A DNA stretch of 61,512 bases from NCBI GenBank assembly GCA_046153505.1, contig JBJXDT010000095.1, forward strand, positions 1 to 61,512, read 5' to 3'. The position numbers and the translations under genes are program-made. Positions 48,601 to 61,512 of this stretch are shown here, one piece after another (positions within the stretch are counted from its first letter, which is position 1; each line of letters begins with the position of its first letter). This DNA comes from Methylophilaceae bacterium (GTDB lineage Bacteria > Pseudomonadota > Gammaproteobacteria > Burkholderiales > Methylophilaceae). The notes below the pieces were generated by a model that worked only from the letters and a program-made list of their open reading frames with translations, ran no database searches and had not been told where the DNA came from.

Positions 48601-49657
48601 GGTCAGCCGTGTCGCGAATCTCGCGTTCCCCTGGCAAAAACACCAAAATATCACCATCTCCGAGCCGCAATAAATCATCAGCCGCGTCTAAGATGGCTTC
48701 TTCAATCGCCTCTTCTTCATCATCTTCAGCGAGCCAACGAGCCTCTGTTTTAGCATTGCGCTTAATGCCTAAAATATTTTTAGGCACAGCCTTATTAGAT
48801 AGTTCATCTTCATCAATATCATCTTCTGGTGCGATTTCGTGTGAAATGAATCCCGCTTTACCTAGTGGGCGATATCTAACTTCAACGGGATAGGTTCTGC
48901 CAGAAACTTCGATCACTGGCGCGCCATTAAAATGTCTTGAAAATCGGTCAGCATCAATCGTTGCAGAGGTCACAATCACCTTTAAATCTGGGCGTTTGGA
49001 CAATAACTGCTTAAGGTATCCCAGCAAAAAATCGATGTTGAGACTGCGTTCATGAGCCTCATCGATGATAATGGTGTCGTATGCATTTAAAAACTTATCA
49101 CCTTGTGTTTCGGCTAACAAAATGCCGTCTGTCATTAACTTAACGTAGCTTGTTTCTGACAGCTTATCGTTAAAGCGCACTTTGTAGCCTACCACCTCGC
49201 CTAAAGGTGATTTAAGTTCTTGCGCGATACGACTTGCCACTGAACGTGCAGCAATACGTCGCGGTTGTGTATGCCCAATTAAGCCAGCCACACCACGACC
49301 TAACTCAAGACAAATTTTAGGCAACTGTGTAGTTTTACCTGAACCAGTTTCGCCACACACAATCACCACTTGATGTTGTAGTATGGCTTGTGCAATTTCA
49401 TCTTTGCGCAATGAAACGGGTAAATCGAGCGGATAGTCGGGCTTGGGTAGTGCATTTTTACGTGCTTGCAATTTAGCGCTTGAAGCACGGATTTTGTATG
49501 CAATCTCTTGCAGAGCCTTATCAATTGGTTTGAGTTGGTTAGCAAGTTCGCGCGCCTTTTGCAAACGACGGTACAGCAGAAAACGATCTGCCAGCATACA
49601 TAGCGGCAATTGTTTTTCTAGCTGGGAAATAAGTTGGGGTGGTTGCGTGTCACTCAT
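45629..49657 (-). CDS. hrpA: ATP-dependent DEAH-box RNA helicase HrpA
   Basis: 1342 aa with GETGSGKTTQLPK, DEAHERS, TSAT, TNVAETS and QRAGRCGR, followed by HA2/OB domains and a long HrpA-specific C-terminal region. Confidence 0.95.
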   Translation of the reverse strand: MSDTQPPQLISQLEKQLPLCMLADRFLLYRRLQKARELANQLKPIDKALQEIAYKIRASSAKLQARKNALPKPDYPLDLPVSLRKDEIAQAILQHQVVIVCGETGSGKTTQLPKICLELGRGVAGLIGHTQPRRIAARSVASRIAQELKSPLGEVVGYKVRFNDKLSETSYVKLMTDGILLAETQGDKFLNAYDTIIIDEAHERSLNIDFLLGYLKQLLSKRPDLKVIVTSATIDADRFSRHFNGAPVIEVSGRTYPVEVRYRPLGKAGFISHEIAPEDDIDEDELSNKAVPKNILGIKRNAKTEARWLAEDDEEEAIEEAILDAADDLLRLGDGDILVFLPGEREIRDTADHLRKYQGRSPKLKHVEVLPLFARLSIEDQQKIFRTGGRRRIVLATNVAETSLTVPGIKYVIDAGLARVNRYSSRAKVEQLQIEKISQAAAKQRAGRCGRVSSGICIRLYSEEDFNNRPEFTEPEILRSSLAAVILRMAALRLGDVEAFPFIETPSSRLIADGYLLLQELGAVNDKREITETGLQLAKLPLDPRVGRMILAAKREACLKEILIITSALSIQDPRERPMDKREAADNAHSKFAGEGSDFISFLKIWDWYEQALKTKKSNKELLSQCHANFLSFLRLKEWRELHAQLLEIVEEMEFRLNDKEPSYEQIHKALLAGLLGNIGFKDGESESYAGARGIRFHIAPGSALKKIRPKWVIAAELVDTSKLYARCVAKIEPDWIEPLARGLTQSAYSDPRWDRKMAMVNAWERVSLYGLTVIPKRRVYYGPISPQESREIFIREALANMEFDTKASFFEANRRMIAEIEALEHKSRRQDVMVDEHQLFAFYDAIIPAGIFSGTSFEKWRSEAEKLNPRLLYLTKEALMRHGAASVTEAQFPEYFLVDGAKLSLKYRFEPTHLLDGVTATVPLALLNQLDATRTEWLVPGMLREKLTNLIKSLPKQYRNACVPVPEFVTGFLEQANVGASPLLQALTQYIQLKTTLKLGVDDFNLANLPPHAFMNFSVIDEKGRELGMSRDWISLKKQLGQAAQLTFRNTSPDIEKTGLKQWDFGDLPATLTFSKDGHQFTGYPALEDNIESVAVKLFDTEQAATASHRAGVRRLMRFELKEQMKQLEKSLPNFNQYAMQLRNAVSVEGLKEDMLTTIADRAFVGEDELPRNNDEFMKLKQRARTRLPAVTEALCRMVNSIATEYTLLVNQQAKMPATVNRLKRDVESQIGLLVFKGCFSQTPWEQITHFPRYLKALRLRIEKQPANPDRDGKNAASVGLLWQNWEAAIDKQRKSDKVSQALIDYRWLIEELRVSLFAQELKTPFPVSIKRLEKIWSDLN

Positions 49658-49700
49658 AAGCGCATCATTTTAACACGCGAGCATCTTATAAAAACGTGAC

Positions 49701-50432
49701 TTAAACTCTACGCTCACGTAAAAAATTGGCAAATTTAGGCTTACCTGTTTTTGTAATATCGCGATAGTTGTAAGTAACCAAGCTACCGATGGCTGGCGGG
49801 TGTGCACATTGCACATCAATAAAGCCCTTGCCTAGTTTAAAGCTAATACTGTCTGGTGTTTCTACCAACAATGCACCCATTTTCCCTTGATTTTTACCCT
49901 TACCCCCAATGTGTTCAATCACATTGACTTCTGCATCTAATTGTAGCTTTAACTTTAACAACACATCACTGCGCCCAGTTAAATATGCGGCATCGGCAAG
50001 GAGCAACATCAACCCTTTACTACCCGCCGCAACCACTTGTTTTAACTTGGCTTGCAGAGCATCGGCATCTTTTAACTTAAACTGTTTAATCGCATGCAAA
50101 TAAGGCGGAAACGCTTGTTTTACCAGTGCCTGGATTTATTGAGCACGACTTTTAAAATCACCAATGGTTAGCGGCAACTCAAATATTTGTGGTAAAACCT
50201 TTGGTAAACCAAGTTTGTGCATGGATAGGATTAGCTTGCCGGGTCACTAGGCGGTTGTCATCCCATATTGCACGCACGCCATCCAGCTTTTCGCTCACCA
50301 AATATGCGTTTAGATCCACACCGTCATGGTCCACATGCGCAAGTAGAGTATCGGGGGGGGGTAGTATAGGCGAATGCTGGCAGAAATAGCGTTAATGCAA
50401 GCAATAGCGAGCGGTAAAGCCTGTGTAATCAA
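49701..50432 (-). pseudogene. Decayed periplasmic ATP-dependent DNA ligase (LigE-type)
   Basis: Three out-of-phase pieces can be read. First, a TTG at 50432 opens a signal-peptide-like frame (ITQALPLAIACINAISA...) that runs into a C9 run (G9 on the + strand, 50353..50361) and stops ~13 codons later. Second, the next frame carries ...LLAHVDHDGVDLNAYLVSEKLDGVRAIWDDNRLVTRQ..FTKGFTTNI* (adenylation motif I KxDG at 50289..50278, stop at 50181..50179). Third, another frame reads IFELPLTIGDFKSRAQ-TAA(50138..50136)-IQALVKQ... and continues into track ORF 49701..50099 (GSKGLML, LLKLK, GKGKNQGKMGALLV, KPKFANFLRER). The segment that should hold motif III (DGEL) is missing. Confidence 0.8.
50353..50361. 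repeat. Homopolymeric G9 tract inside the ligase remnant
   Basis: It is read directly as tcGGGGGGGGGtag. G10 or G7 would join the signal-peptide frame to the KxDG frame. I noticed no other G/C run of this length in the window. Confidence 0.9.
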
Positions 50433-50436
50433 GCTT

Positions 50437-51531
50437 TTACCAATTTAAATCTTGCGGAATAGTGGTTTTATTTTGCGCATGGCGATAATCCGAACTCGCG
50501 GCATACACCCATCTACGCGCACGGTTTAATGCGCCTACAGGTTGCTCATCAGCAAGCGCGTTCCATGGGTTAAACGATAAATTCTCGCAAAATTGCTGTT
50601 GTTCTGGCGTATCAAAGGTTTGCTGGATAATATCAAGCGTTGCAACAGGCACAAATGACACTTCTGTCTCTTGCCATAATACGGTGGCATCTTCAATTGG
50701 CATGGTTTTGCTGGTGTCTTGCACTTGCACCATGAGTAGCATACAGGCGTTTTTCTCAGCCAATTCTGTTGCAAGTGTATGCTTTAAAAAATCAGGGTCT
50801 TGCGAGACATCTGCTTTAATTTTAGAAGGCTCAGCGCAAGAACGCATTTTAAATTTAATGTTGTGTGGCCCAAGCTTATATGCAGTATTACTAAAATACT
50901 CTGTCCATAATGGACTTTTGGGCGGTGGCGAGTATGCCGTGATTAATTGCCATAACTCACGCAAGCGCCATTTAAAAGGGTTGTAGCCTTGCACAAAGTA
51001 AGCTGGGTCACCTTTAGTGTCAACAAACTTGTTGTAATCAGCCACACTGGTCACAAAAAATGCAGGGCTATTGTGCGCAATAAACTCTTGCGTAGTGCCG
51101 CCATTAATATTCTGCCCAACATTAAGCACCTTAATCGCCATGCCACGCGCATCTTTTGCGCGGTCATCGGCATTGGCCATGTTAGAGCCACTATTTGAAA
51201 AACGTATCCAAGATTGATATTGCTTGCCTGGCGTTGAAAACACACCGTAACGCAATTGTGCATCAATGACTGGGCTGACCGTAAAAAACGCCTTCACACA
51301 AGCGTGGCCTTTGGCATGCACCCCGCGCGCGGCATAGCTGGTTTTTAGCGCTTTAATAATGCCTACAGCGCTTTGCGCCGCCACTTTAATATCAGCAGAC
51401 TCATTTGCTGGCACCACCTCTTTTGCAGTGATATCTGCATGGATTTGCATGTGGTAGGCGATAAAGGCGACCAGTATTAGCGCCAATGCCAGCAAAGCCA
51501 AACCTAATCTTTTAATATAGCGCTTAAGCAT
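50437..51531 (-). CDS. Membrane-anchored small catalase-related haem protein ('mini-catalase')
   Basis: An N-terminal TM helix (LGLALLALALILVAFIAY) precedes a catalase core with distal His in ARGVHAKGHACV, IRFSNSGSN and proximal Tyr in RRWVYAASSDYR. The catalytic domain is only ~340 aa. Confidence 0.75.
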   Translation of the reverse strand: MLKRYIKRLGLALLALALILVAFIAYHMQIHADITAKEVVPANESADIKVAAQSAVGIIKALKTSYAARGVHAKGHACVKAFFTVSPVIDAQLRYGVFSTPGKQYQSWIRFSNSGSNMANADDRAKDARGMAIKVLNVGQNINGGTTQEFIAHNSPAFFVTSVADYNKFVDTKGDPAYFVQGYNPFKWRLRELWQLITAYSPPPKSPLWTEYFSNTAYKLGPHNIKFKMRSCAEPSKIKADVSQDPDFLKHTLATELAEKNACMLLMVQVQDTSKTMPIEDATVLWQETEVSFVPVATLDIIQQTFDTPEQQQFCENLSFNPWNALADEQPVGALNRARRWVYAASSDYRHAQNKTTIPQDLNW

Positions 51532-52818
51532 TTACCTTCTTAAGTTCATAATAGGTTTTTCAATAAACAAGTACATCAATGAGGCAATAAACATGCTTAA
51601 TATGGTGCTGATGACAAAGCCATATAACAATATTTGCCCCATCGACCAAGGATAAGCCTCTGGCATAGTCATGGTAAGGTGCAATATGGCAGGAATAACA
51701 ATGACCATCACCACCAGATGAATTAAATACAAAGAGTAAGATAAAGTGGCAATTGGGTACCAAAATGGTAAGGAAAAAAACCACCTAAATGTCGCCGCGA
51801 GACGATGTTGCTGCAATAGCAGGGCAATAATTAAAATGCCAACGCCCACTGCAAACAGAGTGTGGTTAAAAATATAATACAAAATATGCAATGTCTGATT
51901 AGCATCATAATGTGGCAAGAACACTGGAAAGCTCATGAAAAAACCAATTAAGGTGAGGCCTACGACTGTCATGGCCACACCAAAACCTGAGTTAGCGACT
52001 TGCGAGAGTTTTTCTTTGTGAAAGTGCATCGCATAAGCCGCAAGACAGCCAACCACCAAACCGCCAAACCGCGTATGCAAATTGTCATACATGACGGTAA
52101 AAAAGTGATTTAAATAGGCTTCGTTTAAATAAATTGCGCTACTTGGTGTTGTTCTTATGGTGTCGTCTGTGAGTACAATTAAGGTATTAACCACAATTGA
52201 AATAAAGAAAAGCCAAATTAATACAACGCCCGGACTTTTGCTCCATTTTAAGATGGCGATTAAAATGAGTGGATAAATAAAGTAAAACTGCTCTTCAACT
52301 GCCAAACTCCATGTCCAGCCAGCAGCTTGATTTTGATACTCTAAAAAATTGCTCACATAAAGAAAATTAGCCCACACTGAATTGCTGTTATGCGCAGCAA
52401 GCGCCCAATACAAAATCAGCATAAAATAATAGGCTGGCGTTAACCTTAAGTAACGGCGTATATAAAAGTTTTTAAGGTTTAAATGACCTTCCTTGCTATA
52501 TTGTCGCAACAAAATTCCTGAAATTAAAAATCCACTCATGACAAAAAACACATCTACACCTTTATCTCCATTCCACGCCCATGCCCACCCCGAGCCAAGA
52601 ACATCTAACATGCTGGCAATATTTTGGTTTGGATTTGCGTTGTCATAAACGATAAAGGTGTGATAGACCAATACCAAAATAATGGATAAGGCACGGATGC
52701 CGTCAATGGGTGCAAAATTGCTGGCACGTCGCTGATAAATAGACTGGAAATTCTCCCTAAAGGAAAATGCTCTTTGCCATGCACTTTTGCTCATTGCGAT
52801 ATCTTCTGTCATGTCCAT
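51532..52818 (-). CDS. Acyltransferase family 3 (OafA/NolL-like) integral membrane O-acyltransferase
   Basis: ~10 TM helices with IDGIRALSIILVLVYH, VDVFFVMSGFLI and WSLAVEEQFY. A start at the internal ATG at 52794 is possible. Confidence 0.85.
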   Translation of the reverse strand: MDMTEDIAMSKSAWQRAFSFRENFQSIYQRRASNFAPIDGIRALSIILVLVYHTFIVYDNANPNQNIASMLDVLGSGWAWAWNGDKGVDVFFVMSGFLISGILLRQYSKEGHLNLKNFYIRRYLRLTPAYYFMLILYWALAAHNSNSVWANFLYVSNFLEYQNQAAGWTWSLAVEEQFYFIYPLILIAILKWSKSPGVVLIWLFFISIVVNTLIVLTDDTIRTTPSSAIYLNEAYLNHFFTVMYDNLHTRFGGLVVGCLAAYAMHFHKEKLSQVANSGFGVAMTVVGLTLIGFFMSFPVFLPHYDANQTLHILYYIFNHTLFAVGVGILIIALLLQQHRLAATFRWFFSLPFWYPIATLSYSLYLIHLVVMVIVIPAILHLTMTMPEAYPWSMGQILLYGFVISTILSMFIASLMYLFIEKPIMNLRR

Positions 52819-52830
52819 TTCCCCAAATGT

Positions 52831-54546
52831 TTATATTGTTTTTAAGTATTCAATTAATGCCCAGCGCTCTTGCTCTGTCAGCATCGGCAGTTTGTTATAA
52901 CCAGCACCAGTGCCATATTCGTGCCCTGCATTGCTATTGCCTGGCAAAGTGGTATCAAACAAAAAATACTCTTTGACAGGCGCCATGTCAAAACCCACAT
53001 TTTTGGTGTCAAATTCTAAAGAACCCAAATTAAACTGTTTTACACGGTCTTTTGCGGGCAAGAGCAATTGGTATAAATTAGGCACTGAACCATTATGTAA
53101 AAATGGTGCGCTACTCCATACTCCATTGAGTGGTCGCGCTTTATATGCAAGCAACGCCTTTTGTGAGACTTCTTGTCCCGTTGCGATGATTTTGCCATCC
53201 ACATATTTGGGCGGGTGAATCTCATCCCCATGACCAAAGCTACTGGCATCTTTACCCGCCAAATAGGCCTGTAATGGATTATTTTTAATCACACCAACCA
53301 TCACATTGTTAGCAATATCAATCGCAGGCGCCACTTTAGGCAAGGGATCTCCTGCCACATAATAGCGAGGTTGCCCTTCTAGCTTGCCTGATTTTCCTGT
53401 ATTTAAAATAGCATTTTTCGCCATCATCGGGTCGGTTTTAATTTCATCTAAAGTGCTCATGCGCACTTTTATCATGCGTTTCGGATCAGCGCGATTAATA
53501 TCCACATGACACTCCATGCAGTGCAACTCGTACAACTTGCGACCCTGTTGAGCAAGCTTAATATTTATCTTTGGAAAATACGCTGGCCATTGTGGTGAGT
53601 GCAGTTTGCTCACTGTTTTTTCGAGCTTGCGCAATTCAGACGCTTGAATAGATGAGGGATAGCCACCATCAATAAAACCCAACCAATATTGAGTTTGTGG
53701 TGTCACATCACCAAACACGCCAATCACCTCGCCAATATTGCGGGCAAACGCGCCAATATTTGAGTTAGCTTGCGCGCCATTCCACTCAACATAATCGTGT
53801 TGTGGCGTATCCCATAAATAAGGGTAGCTGGTGGGCGCATTAGCAGGATTGGCATTTTTATCGAGGCCTGTAGCCTCTAAACCTCGGTTTAAAATCGCAC
53901 CAAACGCATCTAAACGACCATAGCCATAATGCACATCTGTGTGGTTTTCATTGGCATAGGTAACGCGCTTTTCGTATTCTTTTTGCAAAGATTTTTTTAA
54001 TGCCACTTTAGCGGACTCAGTCACCTGCTTGCCCAGCACATTGGCTTGAAAGCGATTAAATTTATCCGCATCATCCAAGGTAGCTTTCAGCGACAACGTC
54101 ATCTCAGTTAACATTTTTTGTAAATCAAACAAAGGTTGTCCGCCATCTATCATAGTGATTTTGTTTTGATAGCTGATTTGCTGCGTGTGACAAGCAGCAC
54201 AAGTTAAACCCATTTTGTCTTTGTTGCGCGTAAAGCCAATCGGGAAACCATCGGGATTATTTTTGCTTTTTTGCGCAGGAATCGCCCCAAATCGCAACAT
54301 ATTTTCATCGCTCCGGAAAAGTTTGGCTTGATTGGCTTGCTCTAAATACAAAAAGTAATCGTAAGGTACAAGGCGTGATCCCTGGTCTGCAAAATAAAAA
54401 TATTCACGGTCTTGCGACGTCCAGTTTTGCTCAAGATACTGCCCTGCTTGCGCAGTATTTATTAACGTAGTGGAGATCAATAAAACTAATGCAAATAAGG
54501 GACTTGTTTTATGCGGTTCATTTAATTGCATGTTCATCCCATTCAT
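52831..54546 (-). CDS. Secreted large di-haem c-type cytochrome, possibly a RoxA/MauG-like oxygenase or peroxidase; family not verified
   Basis: A signal peptide (...LINTAQA) and two CxxCH sites, CAACH (aa ~117) and CMECH (aa ~345). At 571 aa it is much larger than a canonical bacterial di-haem peroxidase. Confidence 0.6.
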   Translation of the reverse strand: MNGMNMQLNEPHKTSPLFALVLLISTTLINTAQAGQYLEQNWTSQDREYFYFADQGSRLVPYDYFLYLEQANQAKLFRSDENMLRFGAIPAQKSKNNPDGFPIGFTRNKDKMGLTCAACHTQQISYQNKITMIDGGQPLFDLQKMLTEMTLSLKATLDDADKFNRFQANVLGKQVTESAKVALKKSLQKEYEKRVTYANENHTDVHYGYGRLDAFGAILNRGLEATGLDKNANPANAPTSYPYLWDTPQHDYVEWNGAQANSNIGAFARNIGEVIGVFGDVTPQTQYWLGFIDGGYPSSIQASELRKLEKTVSKLHSPQWPAYFPKINIKLAQQGRKLYELHCMECHVDINRADPKRMIKVRMSTLDEIKTDPMMAKNAILNTGKSGKLEGQPRYYVAGDPLPKVAPAIDIANNVMVGVIKNNPLQAYLAGKDASSFGHGDEIHPPKYVDGKIIATGQEVSQKALLAYKARPLNGVWSSAPFLHNGSVPNLYQLLLPAKDRVKQFNLGSLEFDTKNVGFDMAPVKEYFLFDTTLPGNSNAGHEYGTGAGYNKLPMLTEQERWALIEYLKTI

Positions 54547-55979
54547 TGCAGCATATCTCTAGAAAGCAAGGTATTAAGTAAGTTATCTTGAAAATTAAGG
54601 TTCCCAGTTAAACTCTCGTGTGACTCACACAGAAAAAAAGATTGCTCAACAGGCAAATGGATAAACTTATGGCGCTGCACGCTAGGGTCAAGTACATTAC
54701 GGCCTAAAAGAGAAGCTTTTGTCACCGAACCATCACCTGGCTCTAACAGCAGCGCATCATAATCAACCCCTTTAACATGCTGAGTGACTTCGCTCGGATT
54801 CATTCTAACCACGGATTCGCCATTAACTTCCTCTACCAAAATGCGCGCTGGCGTTAATGTACATCCACCGCCAAATACCACAAGCTTTGGTTCTGGCATG
54901 GGCGTCGCAACACTTAAAGACCACATAAAGCGTCTTGCACGCTCAAGATTCTTTTCAAAATATTTTTCGAATGTTGCAAGATGTTGTTCACCTTCTGCTT
55001 TGTTCTCATACTTTGATAGTATTCTTTTTCTCACTTTAGGGTCAAAAATCGACCATTGAAAACTTCGCCAAATTTCCACATCAAACAAATCGCGGTCTAG
55101 TGGCGTGCCGTCGCTTGTCACTATCCAATTATTGAGTGAGTGCGGGAATAATTGATATAAACTTGGCATACTAGCTAGCGTTTCCGTTCCAATTTGATTA
55201 ATACCAATATCTAGACCGCTGATAAACAGATTGAGTGTTCTGATTGACCCTAAATTTGGGGTGCCAAGCAAGATGACACGCCTGACGCGTGATGCGCCAT
55301 ACATAGTGCACTTTTCTCCAAAGTCATTGTCGTTAATGACGTCTTGTTTGCCATAACGAATATAGTAACGGGTAATCAAGCCACCCATGCTGTGGGCAAC
55401 AATATCAACTTTGAGTTTAGGGTTGCTGTAATCCAGCCTTACTTGCTCAATAAAGTCTGCTAGCTGCGCCGCAGTTTTAACATTGTCTTGGCGCCAATCA
55501 TACAAAAATACATAGTAATTTTTATGTTTAGGGTCAACTTTCTCACCCGCATGATGAAGTTGATAGCCCCCAATTTCAGATAAAGTATGGACAATTTTTC
55601 CATAAAAATCTTTGCCAGCCGCACCATCAAAAATATCATACGGAACCGCATTGCTTGGCTTTGGCTCTAAAGTCACTGGGTCAATCTCGTAAGCTGCGTC
55701 CGAATAATCATGAATTAACAAACGACTCACCGCGCCCGGCCACACATCTTCTTTGGTCTTGGTATCTTTAAGCCGGCTACCCAACACGCCATGAATAAAA
55801 ATCACGGGAGGTTGATCGGTCACCATCATTGATTCCATATAAAGGCGGTGCAAATCTGGCGCAAAAATTTTACTATTGGCGTATATGCCAGCAAAAAAAA
55901 CACTTGCCAGCACTAAGCAAGCAAAAATGTATCGATTGAAAAGTCCTCTTCGCAAGGCTCTATATGTTGATTTAAGCAT
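54543..55979 (-). CDS. LCAT-like (lecithin:cholesterol acyltransferase family) alpha/beta-hydrolase lipase/acyltransferase
   Basis: An N-terminal TM/signal anchor, PPVIFIHGVLGS, YDWRQD, nucleophile elbow IVAHSMGG, and GDGSV / SHESL as candidates for the rest of the triad. Confidence 0.75.
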   Translation of the reverse strand: MLKSTYRALRRGLFNRYIFACLVLASVFFAGIYANSKIFAPDLHRLYMESMMVTDQPPVIFIHGVLGSRLKDTKTKEDVWPGAVSRLLIHDYSDAAYEIDPVTLEPKPSNAVPYDIFDGAAGKDFYGKIVHTLSEIGGYQLHHAGEKVDPKHKNYYVFLYDWRQDNVKTAAQLADFIEQVRLDYSNPKLKVDIVAHSMGGLITRYYIRYGKQDVINDNDFGEKCTMYGASRVRRVILLGTPNLGSIRTLNLFISGLDIGINQIGTETLASMPSLYQLFPHSLNNWIVTSDGTPLDRDLFDVEIWRSFQWSIFDPKVRKRILSKYENKAEGEQHLATFEKYFEKNLERARRFMWSLSVATPMPEPKLVVFGGGCTLTPARILVEEVNGESVVRMNPSEVTQHVKGVDYDALLLEPGDGSVTKASLLGRNVLDPSVQRHKFIHLPVEQSFFLCESHESLTGNLNFQDNLLNTLLSRDMLQ

Positions 55980-56075
55980 AAGTGAAAAGCAAACCTACTA
56001 GTTATATTTGTGTTGTTGCAAGCAAGGCTTGTCGGTATTTATTCAAAAAATCTTACTCCTTTTAAACCTTACTAT

Positions 56076-56894
56076 TTAACAATTTACAGCAAAACGCACT
56101 CGCATACTTTCTAAATTAAATTGCTGAAGAATCGCATCTATTCTTTCTTTAGCATTTTTACGGGGCTGACCTGTATATTTAGCAATGATCAGCTCATTTT
56201 TCATAGAATGCTCCCAACCAACCAGCTCTGTTACCGTTACGCTGTAACCAGCCGCCTCAAGTTGCAAACAGCGTAACACATTGGTGATTTGGCTACCAAA
56301 CTCGCGTGTGTGAATGGGGTGACGCCAAATTTCACTTAACGGCGTTTTAGCAAAACTATCGTTTTTATGTAGTCGCAACATTTCAGCAACTTCGGCCTGA
56401 CAACATGGCACCAGTACAATATACTTGGCCTGTTTTTTTAGCCCAAATTGTATCGCATCATCCGTCGCTGTATCACATGCATGTAGCGCTGAAACAATAT
56501 CCACAAGGCTTGGCAAAGCATCCGATAGCGTAGATTGTTCAACGGTTAAGTGCTGAAAATCCATGCGTTCAAAGCCACAATCCATTGCTAATTGCTTTGA
56601 TTTTTCCACCAAGTCTGCACGAGATTCAATACCGATAACGCGCGCACTTTTACTTTCTTTCATAAGCAAATCATACAGAATAAACCCCAAATACGATTTT
56701 CCAGCGCCATGATCCACCAGCGTCACTTCACCTTCAAGCGTCGCGTATAGCGGTGCGATAAAATTGACCAAATGATTCACTTGCTTGAGCTTGCGACGAC
56801 TATCTTGGTTAAGCTTGCCATCGCGCGTCAGAATATGCAGCGCTTTAAGTAAAGCGATAGATTGATTTGGTTTAATTTCAGGGATGTTTTGCAT
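56076..56894 (-). CDS. Class I SAM-dependent methyltransferase (Methyltransf_32-like)
   Basis: LVDHGAGKSYLGF, VIGIES, ALHACDTATDDAI and LVPCCQ. Confidence 0.75.
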   Translation of the reverse strand: MQNIPEIKPNQSIALLKALHILTRDGKLNQDSRRKLKQVNHLVNFIAPLYATLEGEVTLVDHGAGKSYLGFILYDLLMKESKSARVIGIESRADLVEKSKQLAMDCGFERMDFQHLTVEQSTLSDALPSLVDIVSALHACDTATDDAIQFGLKKQAKYIVLVPCCQAEVAEMLRLHKNDSFAKTPLSEIWRHPIHTREFGSQITNVLRCLQLEAAGYSVTVTELVGWEHSMKNELIIAKYTGQPRKNAKERIDAILQQFNLESMRVRFAVNC

Positions 56895-57018
56895 ACCCCA
56901 TTCTAATTGAAAATACTTTTTTCTGTAGCTTGAATGAGCAAATTGATATGGCAGATTATTGTCACTTCCATTTAATATCTGACAATTTTTTACATACCTT
57001 GTAATATTGCCTTAGCTT

Positions 57019-57095
57019 TATACCAAAATAACCCTAGTCAAGCCATTTAAAATAGAGGATTACCTATAAAAAAGGGTTATGACTTTTTTGGTATA
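57019..57095. repeat. Imperfect inverted repeat in a 412-nt AT-rich intergenic region
   Basis: TATACCAAAATAACCC (57019..57034) faces GGGTTAtgacttTTTTGGTATA (57074..57095). This gives 10-bp and 6-bp helices with a 6-nt bulge and a 39-nt loop. Confidence 0.55.
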
Positions 57096-57128
57096 GATTT
57101 TGCTTGATATTCCAGCTAATGATAAACA

Positions 57129-57236
57129 ATTTACTAAATGATAATACTTTATAGCCATCTGCAATATTTGTAGGTGCTTAGAATGAGCTAGGATGTTTAG
57201 CAAATCCTGCTCAAATTTTGACCCATTTACTAAATG
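57129..57236. repeat. Perfect 12-nt direct repeat ATTTACTAAATG, two copies 96 nt apart
   Basis: The copies lie at 57129..57140 and 57225..57236, upstream of the GGDEF-EAL sensor gene. Confidence 0.6.
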
Positions 57237-57333
57237 CAAGGATAATGGATTTAATTCACTTAAGATTATGCTGTTAAAGATGAAACTAATTTTGACTTAA
57301 TATTGATTGACCCTAACAAAAAACTATAAAATC

Positions 57334-60186
57334 ATGGACATATCAGGTACATTTCTAAAAAGCAAAGTTGCCCAGCGGATTGCAATTTTACTTTTGCTAG
57401 CGGCATCTATCCCAGCCGCACTGATGTCTGGCTTATCTCGTCATACAACTTTCGAATTAGTAAGTAACTACGAACATAGCTCGCTTGTTGATAAAAGTAA
57501 AAACTATGCACTTACCGCATCTTCAAATTTGGCATTTTCAAAAGAAAAGTTACTACAATATTCCGAGCTTTTAAACACTGGAACACTACAAAAGCATCAG
57601 GCCGATGCAATAATTCAGCCAATTTTTAGCTCCATAACTGAGATAACAACTGATGGAAAAGTTATTTCGCAATATGGCAATGAAGTGCAAATGCCTATCG
57701 ATTTCGATACGATTGTTCGTAAGATTGCTTTTGATAACATTCCTAATCGCACCCAACTCATTGTTCTACCAGCCAAAAATGACAATGAATATGGCTTAAT
57801 TTATCTCACTTTGCCACAGAGAAAAAAGAATAACGCCCCAACGCTTCTAATTGCCCAAATTAACCCCAGCTTTCTTTTTGGAAGTAGAGACAATTACCCA
57901 GCCAATCTTAATGTATGCGCTTATCAGCTTGAGGACAAATCAAAAAGTAGAATTTTTTGTTCTGCAGATGTCACTATTTCCAGTAATGTCAGCAACAGAG
58001 AAAATATTGACTTTGGCTCATATACGATTCAAATTAACTCAGAACTCAATGACAAGGCTTGGCTATTCGACACACGCAACCTCGACCCGATGTCAGCTGA
58101 TAAATTCAGCACGCTTATTAGCGACAATAATTACATTTGGATAATATCTCTTAGCCTACTGTTAATCGGCCTATTAGGTTTATTTCAAGTCAGAAAAACC
58201 ATGGTACCTCTAGTTAACTTGATTGACGGCACAAAAAAAATTGCCACAGGTGATTACGTTGCAGTAAAAGTAACTGGGTCTTCTGAGTTTTCTGAACTAG
58301 CAGACGCCTTTAATAGCATGTCATCGCACATTAAAAAGCAAGTTGAAACCCTGCGTTCACTTTCATCTATTGATCGTGAAATCGTAACGAATTTAGACGT
58401 CACTGAACTTATTCGCCAAGTGATGCTAAGAATGCAGCAACTTAAGCCAGAAACAACTTTATATCTATTTAGACTTGATGAAAAAACAAATGCCGAGGTA
58501 CAGTGTAGCGTCCAGATTCTAGGCAACCCAGCAATGTCATCCACGCGCATAGCCGTGTCTAATCGTGAAATCGCTGCTATCGAAGTCTATGATCATGGCC
58601 ATATAAACCATTGCACTATGGAAAATGAATTTGTGCATGAAAGCCTGGCTGCAGAACTCGGGGATAATTTTATATGGACTTTACCCATCTTTTGGCAAAG
58701 AGAATTATGCGCTTTTTTAGTAGTTGGTAGCAAAACTCCACTTGTCGAAAACGATGCGGATTGGCCAGAGTTCAGAGAACTGGCAAGTCGAGTAGGTATT
58801 GTAATTTCTGCGCAGGCACGCGAAGAACAACTATTGCTTCAAGCACAATATGACACTTTGACTGGCTTACCTAACCGAATTTTACTGCAAGACCGCTTGC
58901 GACAAGCGATTGACCACAGCGATAGAACTGGTAATCCTTCATGGGTGCTTTTTATAGATCTAGATCGCTTTAAATATATTAATGACAGTTTGGGTCACCA
59001 CATTGGGGATGAACTGCTCGTGCAGGTTTCCAAGCAGTTGCAGGCAGGCGTGCGCGAAACCGACACCGTAGCAAGGTTTGGGGGCGATGAGTTTATTGTC
59101 ATACTGCAAGGCGACATGGGTGAGGACTCGAGACTAAGCATTTTAAATCGCTTAGTAGACTCTGTAGCCATGCCGATCAAAGTCAATAAGCAGGAACTTA
59201 GCACCACTTGCAGCATTGGCATTGCAATCTATCCAAATGATGGCAACAACCCAGAATCACTGATTAAGCATGCCGATATCGCCATGTATCGCGCGAAAGA
59301 AATTGGCCGTAACAACTTTCAATTCTTTACTCAAAACATGAATGATAAGGCCGCTGAACGTATGCGCATGGAATCTTACCTGCGTAAAGCCCTCGAGCAA
59401 GATGAATTTAGCCTGCAGTATCAACCTAAAGTTGATTTAAACTCTAAACAGATTGTGGGTGTAGAAGCCCTATTACGTTGGAGCAATACAGACTTAGGCA
59501 GTGTTTCACCTGATAAATTTATTCAACTAGCCGAAGAGACAAACTTAATATTGCCTATTGGAGAATGGGTACTGCGTAACGCTTGCAAGCAAGCAGTGGT
59601 GTGGCAAAAAGCAGGACTTGGTGAGCTATTGATGGCGGTTAATCTCTCCGCTCGTCAGTTTAAACAAGAAAACCTAATCGAATCTATTAAAGCGATTCTC
59701 GTTGAAACGGGACTAAAAGCAGAGTTTTTGGAACTTGAGCTTACCGAGAGTCTATTTATGAATGATAGCGGCAATGCACTTAAAATTCTGCATGAAATTA
59801 AATCATTGGGCATCAAACTGTCTGTCGATGATTTTGGTACTGGCTATTCCAGTCTTTCTTATTTAAACAACCTACCGCTAGACACACTTAAAATCGACAA
59901 ATCTTTCACTGATGATATTATTCTTAAAAACAAGCGCGTGCCTATTGTTGACACCATCATTGCCTTAGGTAAAAACTTGAATCTGCAAATCGTTGCCGAA
60001 GGCGTAGAGTCAGCCGAGCAAGTTGCCTATTTAACAGCCCATGGTTGCGACCAAATTCAAGGCTATTATTTCAGCCGTCCTGAATCTGCAGACAAGATTG
60101 AAGCAATGCTGGCAAGTAATAAAAAGCTAGTCACACCAAGCTTAAAACCAGTTGCTGTCACCAAAAAGCGTACGAGCTCTTATTAG
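57334..60186 (+). CDS. Membrane sensor: periplasmic domain - TM - HAMP - GAF/PAS-like - GGDEF - EAL
   Basis: Two TM helices flank a ~250-aa periplasmic region. The GGDEF domain shows [14 protein letters not shown], which includes an RxxD I-site. The EAL domain shows VEALLRW, VNLS, ELTE, VDDFGTG, KIDKSF, EGVES and QGY. The ATG is at 57334 and the track ORF starts at a TTG at 57307. Confidence 0.9.
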
Positions 60187-60263: not shown

Positions 60264-61151
60264 ATGGCAATTCAGTGGTACCCAGGACACATGACTTCTG
60301 CCCGCAAAAAGGCGGAAGAAACGATGGAATTCGTCGATATTGTTATCGAAGTATTAGATGCGCGACTACCTGCCGCCAGCCACAACCCAATGATTGATGA
60401 AATGCGGTTATTTAGGCAAAGACCAAACCTAAAAATCCTGAATAAAGCTGATTTGGCAGACCCTGCCGTAACGCAAGCTTGGCTTAACTATTTTAATGCG
60501 CAACCAAACACAAAAGCAGTTGCCCTTTCTTGCAAAAAAGCTGGTGATGCAAAGAAAATTCCTGCGCTTGCCAAGAAATTAGCCCCGCACCGAGGCTCAC
60601 ACTTAAAGCCCTTGCGCATGATGATTATGGGCATTCCCAACGTAGGCAAATCCACACTTATGAACGCATTACTTAACCGCCGTATTGCAAAAGTTGGAGA
60701 TGAGCCCGCTGTGACTAAAAGTCAGCAGCGATTCGACTTGGATGACACCATGAGTATCATTGATACACCCGGGATGATGTGGCCAAAAATTGAGCATGAT
60801 TCCGATGGCTACATGCTTGCTGCCAGCCACGCAATAGGCAGAAACGCAGTTATTGATGAAGATGTTGCATTATTTTTGGCAAATAATCTACTAAAAAATT
60901 ATCCTGATTTGCTAAAGTTGCGCTTCAAAATTGATGTATGCAATATGGATGGCGTAGATTTATTGGAAGCTATTGCAAAGCGCAGAAGTTACAAACGACA
61001 CGATGGCTTATGGGATATGGAAAAAACTGCGGTAATTTTTTTAACGGATTATCGACATGGAACAATTGGCCGTGTGAGCCTAGAAACCCCGCTGAGCAGA
61101 GCTGAAATGATTAAACCAATTACAGAAGAAACACCCGAGAGCCAAGATTAG
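60264..61151 (+). CDS. rbgA: Ribosome biogenesis GTPase A (YlqF/RbgA, circularly permuted GTPase)
   Basis: MAIQWYPGHM, G4 LNKADL placed before G1 GIPNVGKST, and DTPG. Confidence 0.92.
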   Translation: MAIQWYPGHMTSARKKAEETMEFVDIVIEVLDARLPAASHNPMIDEMRLFRQRPNLKILNKADLADPAVTQAWLNYFNAQPNTKAVALSCKKAGDAKKIPALAKKLAPHRGSHLKPLRMMIMGIPNVGKSTLMNALLNRRIAKVGDEPAVTKSQQRFDLDDTMSIIDTPGMMWPKIEHDSDGYMLAASHAIGRNAVIDEDVALFLANNLLKNYPDLLKLRFKIDVCNMDGVDLLEAIAKRRSYKRHDGLWDMEKTAVIFLTDYRHGTIGRVSLETPLSRAEMIKPITEETPESQD

Positions 61152-61512
61152 CTGACTTGCAGGGATTTTTTTCTAGGTTTTTGCGGTAGTTTCTTATCTG
61201 TGGATAACTGTGAATATCGCATTACACGATTACGTCCTGCATTTTTTGCAGCATATAAAGCACCATCAGCAGCAGCCACTAAACCTTTAAACTCATAACC
61301 AGCGCGCACCGAATCCGCAATGCCCACGCTCACCGTTACAACTATCGTCAATTTATAGTCCACGAAGGGCGCTGCTTCAACCCCTGCACGAATACGCTCC
61401 GCCAGCACGCTCGCATCATTCTCATTGGTATTGGGCATAAATACGCAAAATTCTTCACCTCCATATCTGCCAACCACATCACCTGTACGCAAAAGTTTTG
61501 AAATGCGTACAG
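61148..61512 (-). CDS. Partial CDS with its N-terminus beyond the window end: C-terminal part of a GGDEF-domain diguanylate cyclase
   Basis: ...LRTGDVVGRYGGEEFCVFM...TVSVGIA...ADGALYAAKNAGRNRV. The frame stays open from 61492 to the window edge. Confidence 0.85.
   Translation of the reverse strand, partial: VRISKLLRTGDVVGRYGGEEFCVFMPNTNENDASVLAERIRAGVEAAPFVDYKLTIVVTVSVGIADSVRAGYEFKGLVAAADGALYAAKNAGRNRVMRYSQLSTDKKLPQKPRKKSLQVS

Follow-up and report, generated by a model that had tools for sequence, protein, structure and literature searches.

A RoxA-related di-haem cytochrome and a catalase-related mini-haemoprotein form the core of a candidate envelope lipid-oxygenation cassette in a Methylophilaceae bacterium

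The window analysed here is a 61,512-nucleotide stretch of contig JBJXDT010000095.1 (assembly GCA_046153505.1) from a bacterium that the names of the database matches place in the Methylophilaceae. Between positions 50437 and 55979 it carries a cassette of four co-directional minus-strand genes with gaps of −4 to 12 nt, encoding an LCAT-like hydrolase, a RoxA-related di-haem c-type cytochrome, an Acyl_transf_3 (AT3) membrane protein and a catalase-related mini-haemoprotein, hereafter the mini-catalase (Table 1). Direct reading of the junctions showed that the TGA of the LCAT-like gene overlaps the earliest ATG available to the di-haem gene (ctgcaATGAatg), that a 12-nt spacer with GGGGAA precedes the ATG of the AT3 gene, and that the TAA of the latter directly abuts the ATG of the mini-catalase gene (TAAATG; aggTAAATGctt). 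The ATGA overlap depends on the choice of start codon because the public gene call for the di-haem protein begins at Met6 (566 aa, coordinate 54531), which would replace the overlap with a gap of ~12 nt. The only sizeable gap of the unit lies 5' of the LCAT-like gene. Rfam gave no regulatory-RNA match in window positions 49500-57400, this gap included, and promoter and terminator scans of the cassette region were not better than shuffled sequence. An earlier note, made from the letters of the window, had described four tightly packed genes for envelope proteins, and the listing of open reading frames (ORFs) and the junctions bear out that arrangement. The motifs it quoted (VAHSMGG, YDWR, CAACH, CMECH, VHAKGH, IRFSNSG and RRWVYAASSDYR) were all found, and its four family assignments agree with Pfam and NCBIfam profile searches. 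Envelope targeting of the four products is consistent with a hydropathy scan of the lipase, the mini-catalase and AT3, and with the signal-peptide-like N-terminus and c-type haem of the di-haem protein. The four-gene cassette is thus confirmed as an observation, and the earlier interpretation, a lipid-oxygenation or oxidised-lipid pathway, is partly supported.

Table 1. Genes and upstream region of the cassette, in window coordinates.
Feature	Coordinates	Strand	Length	Basis
LCAT-like alpha/beta-hydrolase (lipase or acyltransferase)	54543..55979	minus	478 aa	ORF listing and Pfam
RoxA-related di-haem c-type cytochrome enzyme, NCBIfam NF040606 (core partner 1)	52831..54546	minus	571 aa	
Acyl_transf_3 (AT3) integral-membrane acyltransferase (accessory member)	51532..52818	minus	428 aa	
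Membrane-anchored catalase-related mini-haemoprotein, mini-catalase (core partner 2)	50437..51531	minus	364 aa	
Intergenic region 5' of LCAT-like gene, presumed promoter/leader	55980..56075	minus	96 nt	position; promoter role inferred

The di-haem protein matches the NCBIfam model NF040606, named 'di-heme-cytochrome C peroxidase', over its full length (positions 1-524 of 524; E=3.3e-174, 580.9 bits against a cutoff of 150). Literature searches turned up no tested function for this family of more than 5000 sequence clusters, and its name is a label. The two haem-binding motifs, CAACH at residue 116 and CMECH at residue 343, are 227 residues apart (227-243 in non-fused family members), and C116/C119/H120, C343/C346/H347, W245, W320, W477, H484 and H542 are invariant in 30 diverse members. 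Canonical cytochrome c peroxidases (CCPs) display His/Met ligation. No match to CCP_MauG (PF03150) was found in the protein at E ≤ 0.01, and a PDB search with the family profile at E ≤ 1 returned no CCP or MauG chain. The window and the retrieved loci likewise contained no CCP or MauG sequence. Past H484 the protein continues as NGSVPNLYQLLLPAK, in which no Met was seen by eye at the expected CCP ligand position; the rule applied is that the CCP Met or MauG Tyr ligand lies ~14 residues past the PYxHxG motif. The N-terminal haem domain matched nothing in the PDB even at E ≤ 10. The likeness by eye of NAPTSYPYLWD and RNIGE to the CCP consensus (RNAPT...FWDGR, NPxEM) is a possible lead.

In the PDB the di-haem protein has a single relative, the rubber oxygenase RoxA (4b2n). 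The two are collinear at four landmarks, namely the first CxxCH, the helix before the second CxxCH, the motif of Pfam RoxA-like_Cyt-c (PF21419, E=2e-16; APFLHNGSVPNLY) and a C-terminal segment in which GNSNAGHEYG aligns to GNDNGGHDF of RoxA and is followed by ERWALIEYLKT. The NCBIfam RoxA, RoxB and RoxC models scored 55-68 bits against cutoffs of 900-1000, with the conserved motif alone aligning. The His of the RoxA GGHDF segment is presumably H641, the putative second His ligand of a bis-His haem. H641 has been named as a haem-2 residue of RoxA (PMC4496055), and the aligned C-terminal His of the window protein, invariant in the 30 family members, would be its second haem-2 ligand. Because there is no CCP_MauG match and the RoxA/B/C scores fall far under cutoff, the di-haem protein is neither a canonical peroxidase nor an orthologue of the rubber oxygenases. 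The earlier description of the protein as RoxA-related, as opposed to an ordinary CCP, is sustained by these results. The N-terminus resembles a signal peptide (...LFALVLLISTTLINTAQA/G), and the protein is taken to be periplasmic because c-type haem attachment implies export.

The mini-catalase matches Pfam Catalase in part (E=2e-12, profile positions 44-141 of 383) and is ~150 residues shorter than true catalases (364 aa with its anchor, compared with subunits of ~480 aa or more that include a wrapping loop and a C-terminal helical domain). A phmmer search aligned residues 67-350, nearly the full length, with PDB entry 3e4w (E=4.5e-5). The AlphaFold2 (AF2) model (pLDDT 76, pTM 0.77) identified 3e4y/3e4w as the best Foldseek matches (TM 0.66, E=4e-13); it matches the coral allene oxide synthase (AOS) 1u5u with a TM of 0.63, normalised either way, and full catalases with a TM of ~0.45 when normalised to the full catalases. 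Size, the partial Pfam match and the best fit to a 33-kDa mycobacterial protein are in keeping with the earlier view that this is a catalase-related mini-haemoprotein and not a full catalase. A hydropathy scan located a transmembrane segment at residues 9-27. R339 and Y343 are kept in 137-138 of 138 family representatives and H72 in 135, and R350 is likewise essentially invariant. In a hidden Markov model (HMM) alignment H72 and Y343 fall in the distal His and proximal Tyr regions of catalase, and AHNSPAFF aligns to GNNTPVFF, which makes H153 the counterpart of catalase Asn148 in human numbering (a shift by one residue, to N154, is possible). In the clade of the window the H153 column holds His, and most of the family has Ile, Val, Ala, Met or Leu there. 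The distal His follows Val71; at this site the 138 representatives have Ala in 71 cases, Val in 22 and Gln in 22. An exhaustive representative search at the 50% identity level placed 3624 clusters in the family at E ≤ 1e-3.

The LCAT-like protein matches Pfam LCAT (PF02450; E=1.8e-12, 47.7 bits against a cutoff of 21) over profile positions 91-203 of 392, and also Lipase_2, PGAP1 and DUF676; its PDB matches are to Bacillus LipA, at the AHSMGG nucleophile elbow. S197 of this elbow, D416 in PGDxxV (PGDGSV here), H454 and Y160-D161-W162-R163 are invariant in 45 LCAT-like homologues. The AHSxG elbow, GDG-type Asp motif, Ser-Asp-His triad and YDWR are presumably the hallmark motifs of LCAT. The single N-terminal hydrophobic segment (residues 14-39, hydropathy scan) is predicted to be a membrane anchor, with the catalytic domain facing the periplasm. 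The AT3 protein covers positions 4-321 of the 326 in PF01757 (E=1.1e-25, 90.9 bits against 31), contains eight hydrophobic segments indicative of a multi-spanning topology, and displays the N-terminal D/R/H motif IDGIRALSIILVLVYH and WSLAVEEQFY, which follows the WSLxxEExFY pattern; PDB and NCBIfam searches found no relative. Predicted active-site residues are conserved in every component of the cassette.

The conservation of the gene neighbourhood was explored by scanning species-representative genomes with the mini-catalase, which gave 329 relatives. Eighty of their loci were retrieved and searched with the four window proteins (tblastn), and all their ORFs were clustered. The di-haem gene lies directly upstream of the mini-catalase gene, on the same strand, in 67 of the 72 loci with at least 2 kb of upstream sequence. 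The pair spans Beta-, Gamma- and Alphaproteobacteria, Acidobacteriota and Gemmatimonadota, and occurs in Methylophilaceae, Methylophagaceae, Arenicella, Colwellia, Cellvibrionaceae, Woeseiaceae, Nevskiaceae, the isolate Fluctibacter corallii and Dongiaceae in addition to the last two phyla. Distant relatives keep it at identities of 36-43% for the mini-catalase and 27-32% for the di-haem protein. Among the 56 loci with at least 5 kb upstream, 22 contain all four genes, 15 the LCAT-like, di-haem and mini-catalase genes without AT3, 15 the haem pair only, two AT3 and the mini-catalase without the di-haem gene, and two the mini-catalase alone. The LCAT-like gene is thus present in 37 of these 56 loci (46 loci by ORF clustering of all those retrieved) and is confined to one large clade, while AT3, missing from 15 of these 37 LCAT-containing cassettes, is an accessory member that is repeatedly missing. 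Sequence identity rises and falls together for the four proteins from locus to locus (r = 0.76-0.83; 0.80 for AT3 and the di-haem protein), indicating that the cassette is inherited and transferred as a unit. The arrangement is far beyond chance, since dozens of genomes share the gene order but not the flanking genes. The conserved, ancient core is the di-haem/mini-catalase pair, not all four genes equally. Of the four-gene adjacency proposed earlier, the pairing of the two haem genes therefore stands across phyla, but the four genes are not a fixed unit. A stand-alone glycan O-acylation pair formed by AT3 and the LCAT-like hydrolase was considered and rejected, because the other three genes are kept without AT3 in 15 loci.

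The two haem proteins also occur as single polypeptides. In P0227 and P0264, which are 31-34% identical to each other, an N-terminal catalase module precedes a RoxA-like di-haem module, and P0259 has the opposite order; each of the three matches both window haem proteins over essentially full length. Adjacency conserved across phyla and fusion in both orders support the view that the two haem genes are functionally coupled. Other members of the mini-catalase family are fused to An_peroxidase, a member of the cyclooxygenase (COX)/linoleate-diol-synthase superfamily, and on a Methylobacterium currus plasmid an An_peroxidase gene lies next to a mini-catalase gene. A Rhizobium phaseoli plasmid (NZ_CP013550.1, 22470-26967; locus L093) contains a cluster of three haem modules, made up of a 942-aa mini-catalase::An_peroxidase fusion and, 10 nt further on, a 552-aa RoxA-like di-haem protein (NF040606, 164 bits) whose sole annotation is 'cytochrome c'.

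The lipid context of the pair is not restricted to LCAT-like proteins. The y4iL region of the symbiosis plasmid pNGR234a of Sinorhizobium fredii NGR234 (NC_000914.2, 410107-416160) encodes a catalase-family protein, a 232-aa hypothetical protein, an NF040606 di-haem protein (491 bits) and a patatin-like phospholipase, the last assignment having weak HMM support together with GASAG nucleophile and DGG Asp motifs read directly. In two Pseudomonadales-type metagenome-assembled genomes (L081 and L082) a class-3 lipase, Lipase_3 (PF01764, 6e-17), is encoded directly upstream of the di-haem gene, and a homologue lies nearby in a third (L083). A FA_hydroxylase gene (PF04116) separates the LCAT-like and di-haem genes in a Gemmatimonadota locus (L045) and is found within 3 kb of the pair in L081 and L078, making three lineages. 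The occurrence of three unrelated lipase families beside the pair is a case of non-orthologous replacement and speaks for acyl-ester hydrolysis as part of the function. Lipase replacement and the recurrent FA_hydroxylase neighbours lend weight to the lipid substrate suggested in the earlier note.

Other genes recur around the haem genes in particular lineages. In Methylophagaceae L001 and L004 the four-gene cassette lies between recC and an Hsp33-HtpG gene pair, with a YaaA-type (H2O2_YaaD) peroxide-stress gene a few kb off, which may be coincidental synteny or a weak hint of oxidative stress. Arenicella-type loci (L059, L070, L073, L075 and L078) contain another conserved five-gene set encoding a transmembrane/TPR protein, an SMP-30/gluconolactonase-like protein, the di-haem protein (which in some loci has an extra, third CxxCH), the mini-catalase and a small Ion_trans_2 channel-like protein; strictosidine-synthase/SGL-like genes are close to the pair in L063, L068 and L072. 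On plasmid pMRAD01 of Methylobacterium radiotolerans (NC_010510.1, 209409-213864; L087), which contains no mini-catalase gene in this region, the NF040606 gene is followed by genes for a helix-turn-helix (HTH) regulator and a cytochrome P450, the P450 being a possible alternative partner for hydroperoxide conversion. A similar HTH regulator gene adjoins the di-haem gene in R. brockwellii, where peptidase genes are also neighbours, and in Ruegeria pomeroyi; in Ruegeria the NF040606 gene otherwise stands alone.

The earlier note knew of no characterized system with this gene set, a statement that misses two partial precedents, the di-haem pair of P. aeruginosa (PMC4496055) and a Nostoc pair (PMC13049297). 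In P. aeruginosa the oleate 10S-dioxygenase PA2077 and the hydroperoxide-isomerising 7,10-diol synthase PA2078 are periplasmic, ~65-kDa di-haem proteins of the RoxA group, termed FadCcps, with haem motifs 245 and 235 residues apart, respectively, and are described as essentially confined to this species (PMC4496055). Set beside this published description, the window di-haem protein is likewise periplasmic and of the RoxA group, has a similar CxxCH spacing (227 compared with 235-245) and resembles RoxA in the haem core alone. The P. aeruginosa operon acts on unsaturated fatty acids in two steps, a hydroperoxide being made and then converted, and by analogy the cassette would do the same. In contrast to the P. 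aeruginosa pair, the second enzyme in the window is a catalase-related b-haem protein and not a di-haem paralogue, the operon includes a dedicated lipase and sometimes AT3, and the NF040606 family is widespread.

In Nostoc punctiforme the hydroperoxide product of a 10S-DOX is converted by a catalase-related lyase that has its own gene (PMC13049297, citing Brash et al. 2014). Like the coral and cyanobacterial AOS-lipoxygenase fusions (1u5u, 3dy5) and the Nostoc pair, the cassette genetically couples a ~35-40-kDa haemoprotein that has a catalase core, a distal His and a proximal Tyr to an oxygenase with haem or iron. Its partner, however, is a c-type RoxA-like di-haem protein as opposed to a lipoxygenase or COX-like peroxidase, and the mini-catalase differs from the AOS and Nostoc enzymes in being membrane-anchored and periplasmic, with Val-His in place of Thr-His and His at the Asn148 position. 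The best match among solved structures, MAP-2744c of Mycobacterium avium subsp. paratuberculosis (3e4w, 3e4y), is similarly small and consists of the catalase core only, but is soluble and ~20% identical. MAP-2744c is not known to have a di-haem or lipase partner. With RoxA, RoxB and RoxC the di-haem protein shares two CxxCH haems and the landmarks described above, to which the likeness is limited; compared with RoxA the haem spacing is 227 and not 199 residues, the protein is ~100 residues shorter, and the gene context contains no pointer to rubber degradation. The pNGR234a cluster, which has the same two haem families beside a lipase and is likewise uncharacterized, differs from the cassette in its reversed gene order, its lipase family, its lack of AT3 and its extra small hypothetical gene. 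Judged by these analogies, the cassette would join one element of each precedent, a di-haem oxygenase and a catalase-related converter, to a dedicated lipase.

These comparisons lead us to propose that the cassette is an envelope module for lipid oxygenation of the oxylipin type, a reading that we judge evenly poised between right and wrong and in which the chemistry stays at the level of a proposal. At its core a periplasmic RoxA-related di-haem c enzyme would work with the membrane-anchored catalase-related b-haem protein. The two haem enzymes would act in sequence on an unsaturated acyl chain, one adding or rearranging an O-O or oxygen function and the other converting the hydroperoxide; by analogy with the characterized systems, oxygenation would fall to the di-haem enzyme and conversion to the mini-catalase. 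The substrate would come from the LCAT-like Ser-Asp-His hydrolase, which would free or transfer acyl chains of phospholipids on the outer face of the inner membrane, and AT3, which is optional, could O-acylate the hydroxylated product or an acceptor. Substrate, product, the order of the two haem steps and the role of AT3 are all inferred. The broader picture, put forward tentatively and with slightly less than even confidence, is of a widespread pathway built on an obligate two-haem-enzyme unit, fused in some bacteria and fed by interchangeable lipases, that makes periplasmic oxylipin-type products in methylotrophs, marine heterotrophs and legume symbionts.

Several observations weigh against a lipid-oxygenation module. 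Catalase-related enzymes acting on fatty-acid hydroperoxides are reportedly marked by a Thr-His distal pair, seen in allene oxide synthases in work of the Brash laboratory, and the mini-catalase, with Val-His, lacks this signature of fatty-acid hydroperoxide chemistry. The mini-catalase family is also fused to DyP peroxidases, which fits peroxide-consuming chemistry equally. The R. phaseoli cluster indicates that the di-haem protein need not be the primary dioxygenase; it may act downstream of or beside another dioxygenase, by analogy with PA2078. The pairing itself has exceptions. NF040606 genes occur without a mini-catalase in Methylobacterium, Rhizobium and Ruegeria. Conversely, Acinetobacter baumannii (NZ_CP104448.1, 3144980-3146143; L091) encodes a solitary 387-aa mini-catalase (39% identity) with no di-haem partner, and pairing is thus not universal in the wider family; a PLD-like gene lies ~2.5 kb downstream in this record, a 4-Mb, almost unannotated chromosome filed as a plasmid in PLSDB. 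The related gammaproteobacterial loci L030, L034 and L041 keep AT3 immediately upstream of the mini-catalase with the di-haem gene absent. In L041 a short piece of the di-haem gene, 41% identical across residues 12-99, persists between the LCAT-like and AT3 genes, which suggests recent deletion of the di-haem gene. At haem 1 RoxA has a hydrophobic distal pocket with the essential Phe317; the corresponding pocket of the di-haem protein could not be read from its AF2 model, which was built from 34 sequences with a pLDDT of 53 and a pTM of 0.41 and whose Foldseek matches are meaningless. Finally, literature searches found no paper on the di-haem/mini-catalase/lipase cassette, nor biochemistry of either haem family in this pairing.

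Several of these observations would be accommodated by the repair or detoxification of oxidised lipids, which we consider rather unlikely but deserving of serious attention. The lipase would cut peroxidised acyl chains out of envelope phospholipids and the mini-catalase would reduce ROOH to ROH as an organic-hydroperoxide peroxidase, with the di-haem protein either passing on electrons from the periplasmic cytochrome pool or serving as a second peroxidase, and AT3 or the LCAT-like transferase helping to re-acylate the lysolipid. The closest solved relative of the mini-catalase, the 33-kDa M. avium protein, is a peroxidase preferring organic hydroperoxides, Val, Ala or Gln and not Thr stands before the distal His, family members are fused to the peroxide-using DyP and An_peroxidase proteins, and the NCBI name of the di-haem family is peroxidase. 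The Methylophagaceae cassette lies beside genes for Hsp33, HtpG and a YaaA-type peroxide-stress protein, and animal LCAT-family lipases prefer oxidised or short-chain phospholipids. However, those stress genes are on the other strand and in one lineage only, and the cassette has no linked peroxide-responsive regulator. The di-haem protein, moreover, is of the 63-kDa RoxA type, with no CCP_MauG match and a RoxA GGHDF-aligned region (placed as a bis-His ligand) as opposed to the His/Met of CCPs, and a mere electron donor would need neither ~570 conserved residues nor fusion to its acceptor in both orders. Were lipid-peroxide repair nonetheless the correct explanation, the cassette would be a dedicated periplasmic system for that purpose, likewise new for bacteria.

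A general periplasmic defence against H2O2, composed of an ordinary CCP and a small catalase with the lipase and acyltransferase as unrelated neighbours, is suggested by the database names ('di-heme-cytochrome C peroxidase' and 'catalase family protein') and by retention of the catalase-type Val-His distal pair and proximal Tyr/Arg. Such a role is very improbable, as there is no PF03150 match and by eye no Met at the expected position of the CCP ligand, the Asn148 position is His in the clade and hydrophobic across the family, and ~150 catalase residues are absent. The lipase linkage is also not incidental, because it recurs with three unrelated lipase families. A non-acyl hydrophobic substrate is improbable too. 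Here a polyisoprenoid, carotenoid, quinone side chain or hopanoid would be oxidised or cleaved by the RoxA-like oxygenase, with the mini-catalase processing a peroxide intermediate and the esterase removing an ester cap. The sole solved relative of the di-haem protein is indeed a rubber oxygenase, the NCBIfam RoxA, RoxB and RoxC models do match, the M. radiotolerans di-haem gene is near a P450 gene and not a lipase gene, and SMP-30/strictosidine-synthase-like genes occur alongside the pair in L063, L068 and the loci of the Arenicella type. The equivalog scores, however, are those of a shared motif only, at 55-68 bits against 900-1000, and the recurring neighbours are enzymes of acyl lipids (LCAT-like, patatin-like, Lipase_3 and FA_hydroxylase) and not of isoprenoids.

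In the window the cassette is flanked by methyltransferase and ligase genes. The ligase gene, just downstream of the mini-catalase (49701-50432, minus strand), starts 4 nt past the mini-catalase TAA and encoded an ATP-dependent DNA ligase of the periplasmic type (NCBIfam PRK09125). It is a true pseudogene: the frame shifts close to a C8 run, an in-frame stop (RAQ*IQ) interrupts it, and ~34 residues are missing compared with the intact 280-294-aa orthologues, which hold the same position in L025, L016, L012, L007 and L023. About 1.3 kb upstream of the cassette, and divergent from it, is a gene for a 959-aa HAMP/GGDEF/EAL signalling protein (57307-60186, plus strand), and a second GGDEF fragment lies at the window edge (61148-61492, minus strand); in L069 and L081-L084, too, GGDEF genes are found close to the haem pair. 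An anti-phage defence system was rejected as an identity for the locus, PADLOC giving zero matches.

Bacterial oxylipin biosynthesis is known from very few systems, the best studied being the oleate-diol synthase of P. aeruginosa, whose products are quorum-sensing signals. The cassette suggests a far wider distribution, well beyond one species, for RoxA-type di-haem enzymes that act on acyl lipids, and gives them a new, genetically obligate partner in a catalase-related haemoprotein. If the proposed lipid-oxygenation module is correct, it would represent a third enzymatic route for making and converting lipid hydroperoxides, beside lipoxygenase or COX enzymes combined with P450 or catalase-related enzymes, and the P. 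aeruginosa di-haem pair. The cassette also provides a first functional hypothesis for two large families that lack a functional annotation, NF040606 and the mini-catalases named 'catalase family protein', and the symbiosis-plasmid cluster of NGR234 and the cultured isolate Fluctibacter corallii are named targets of study.

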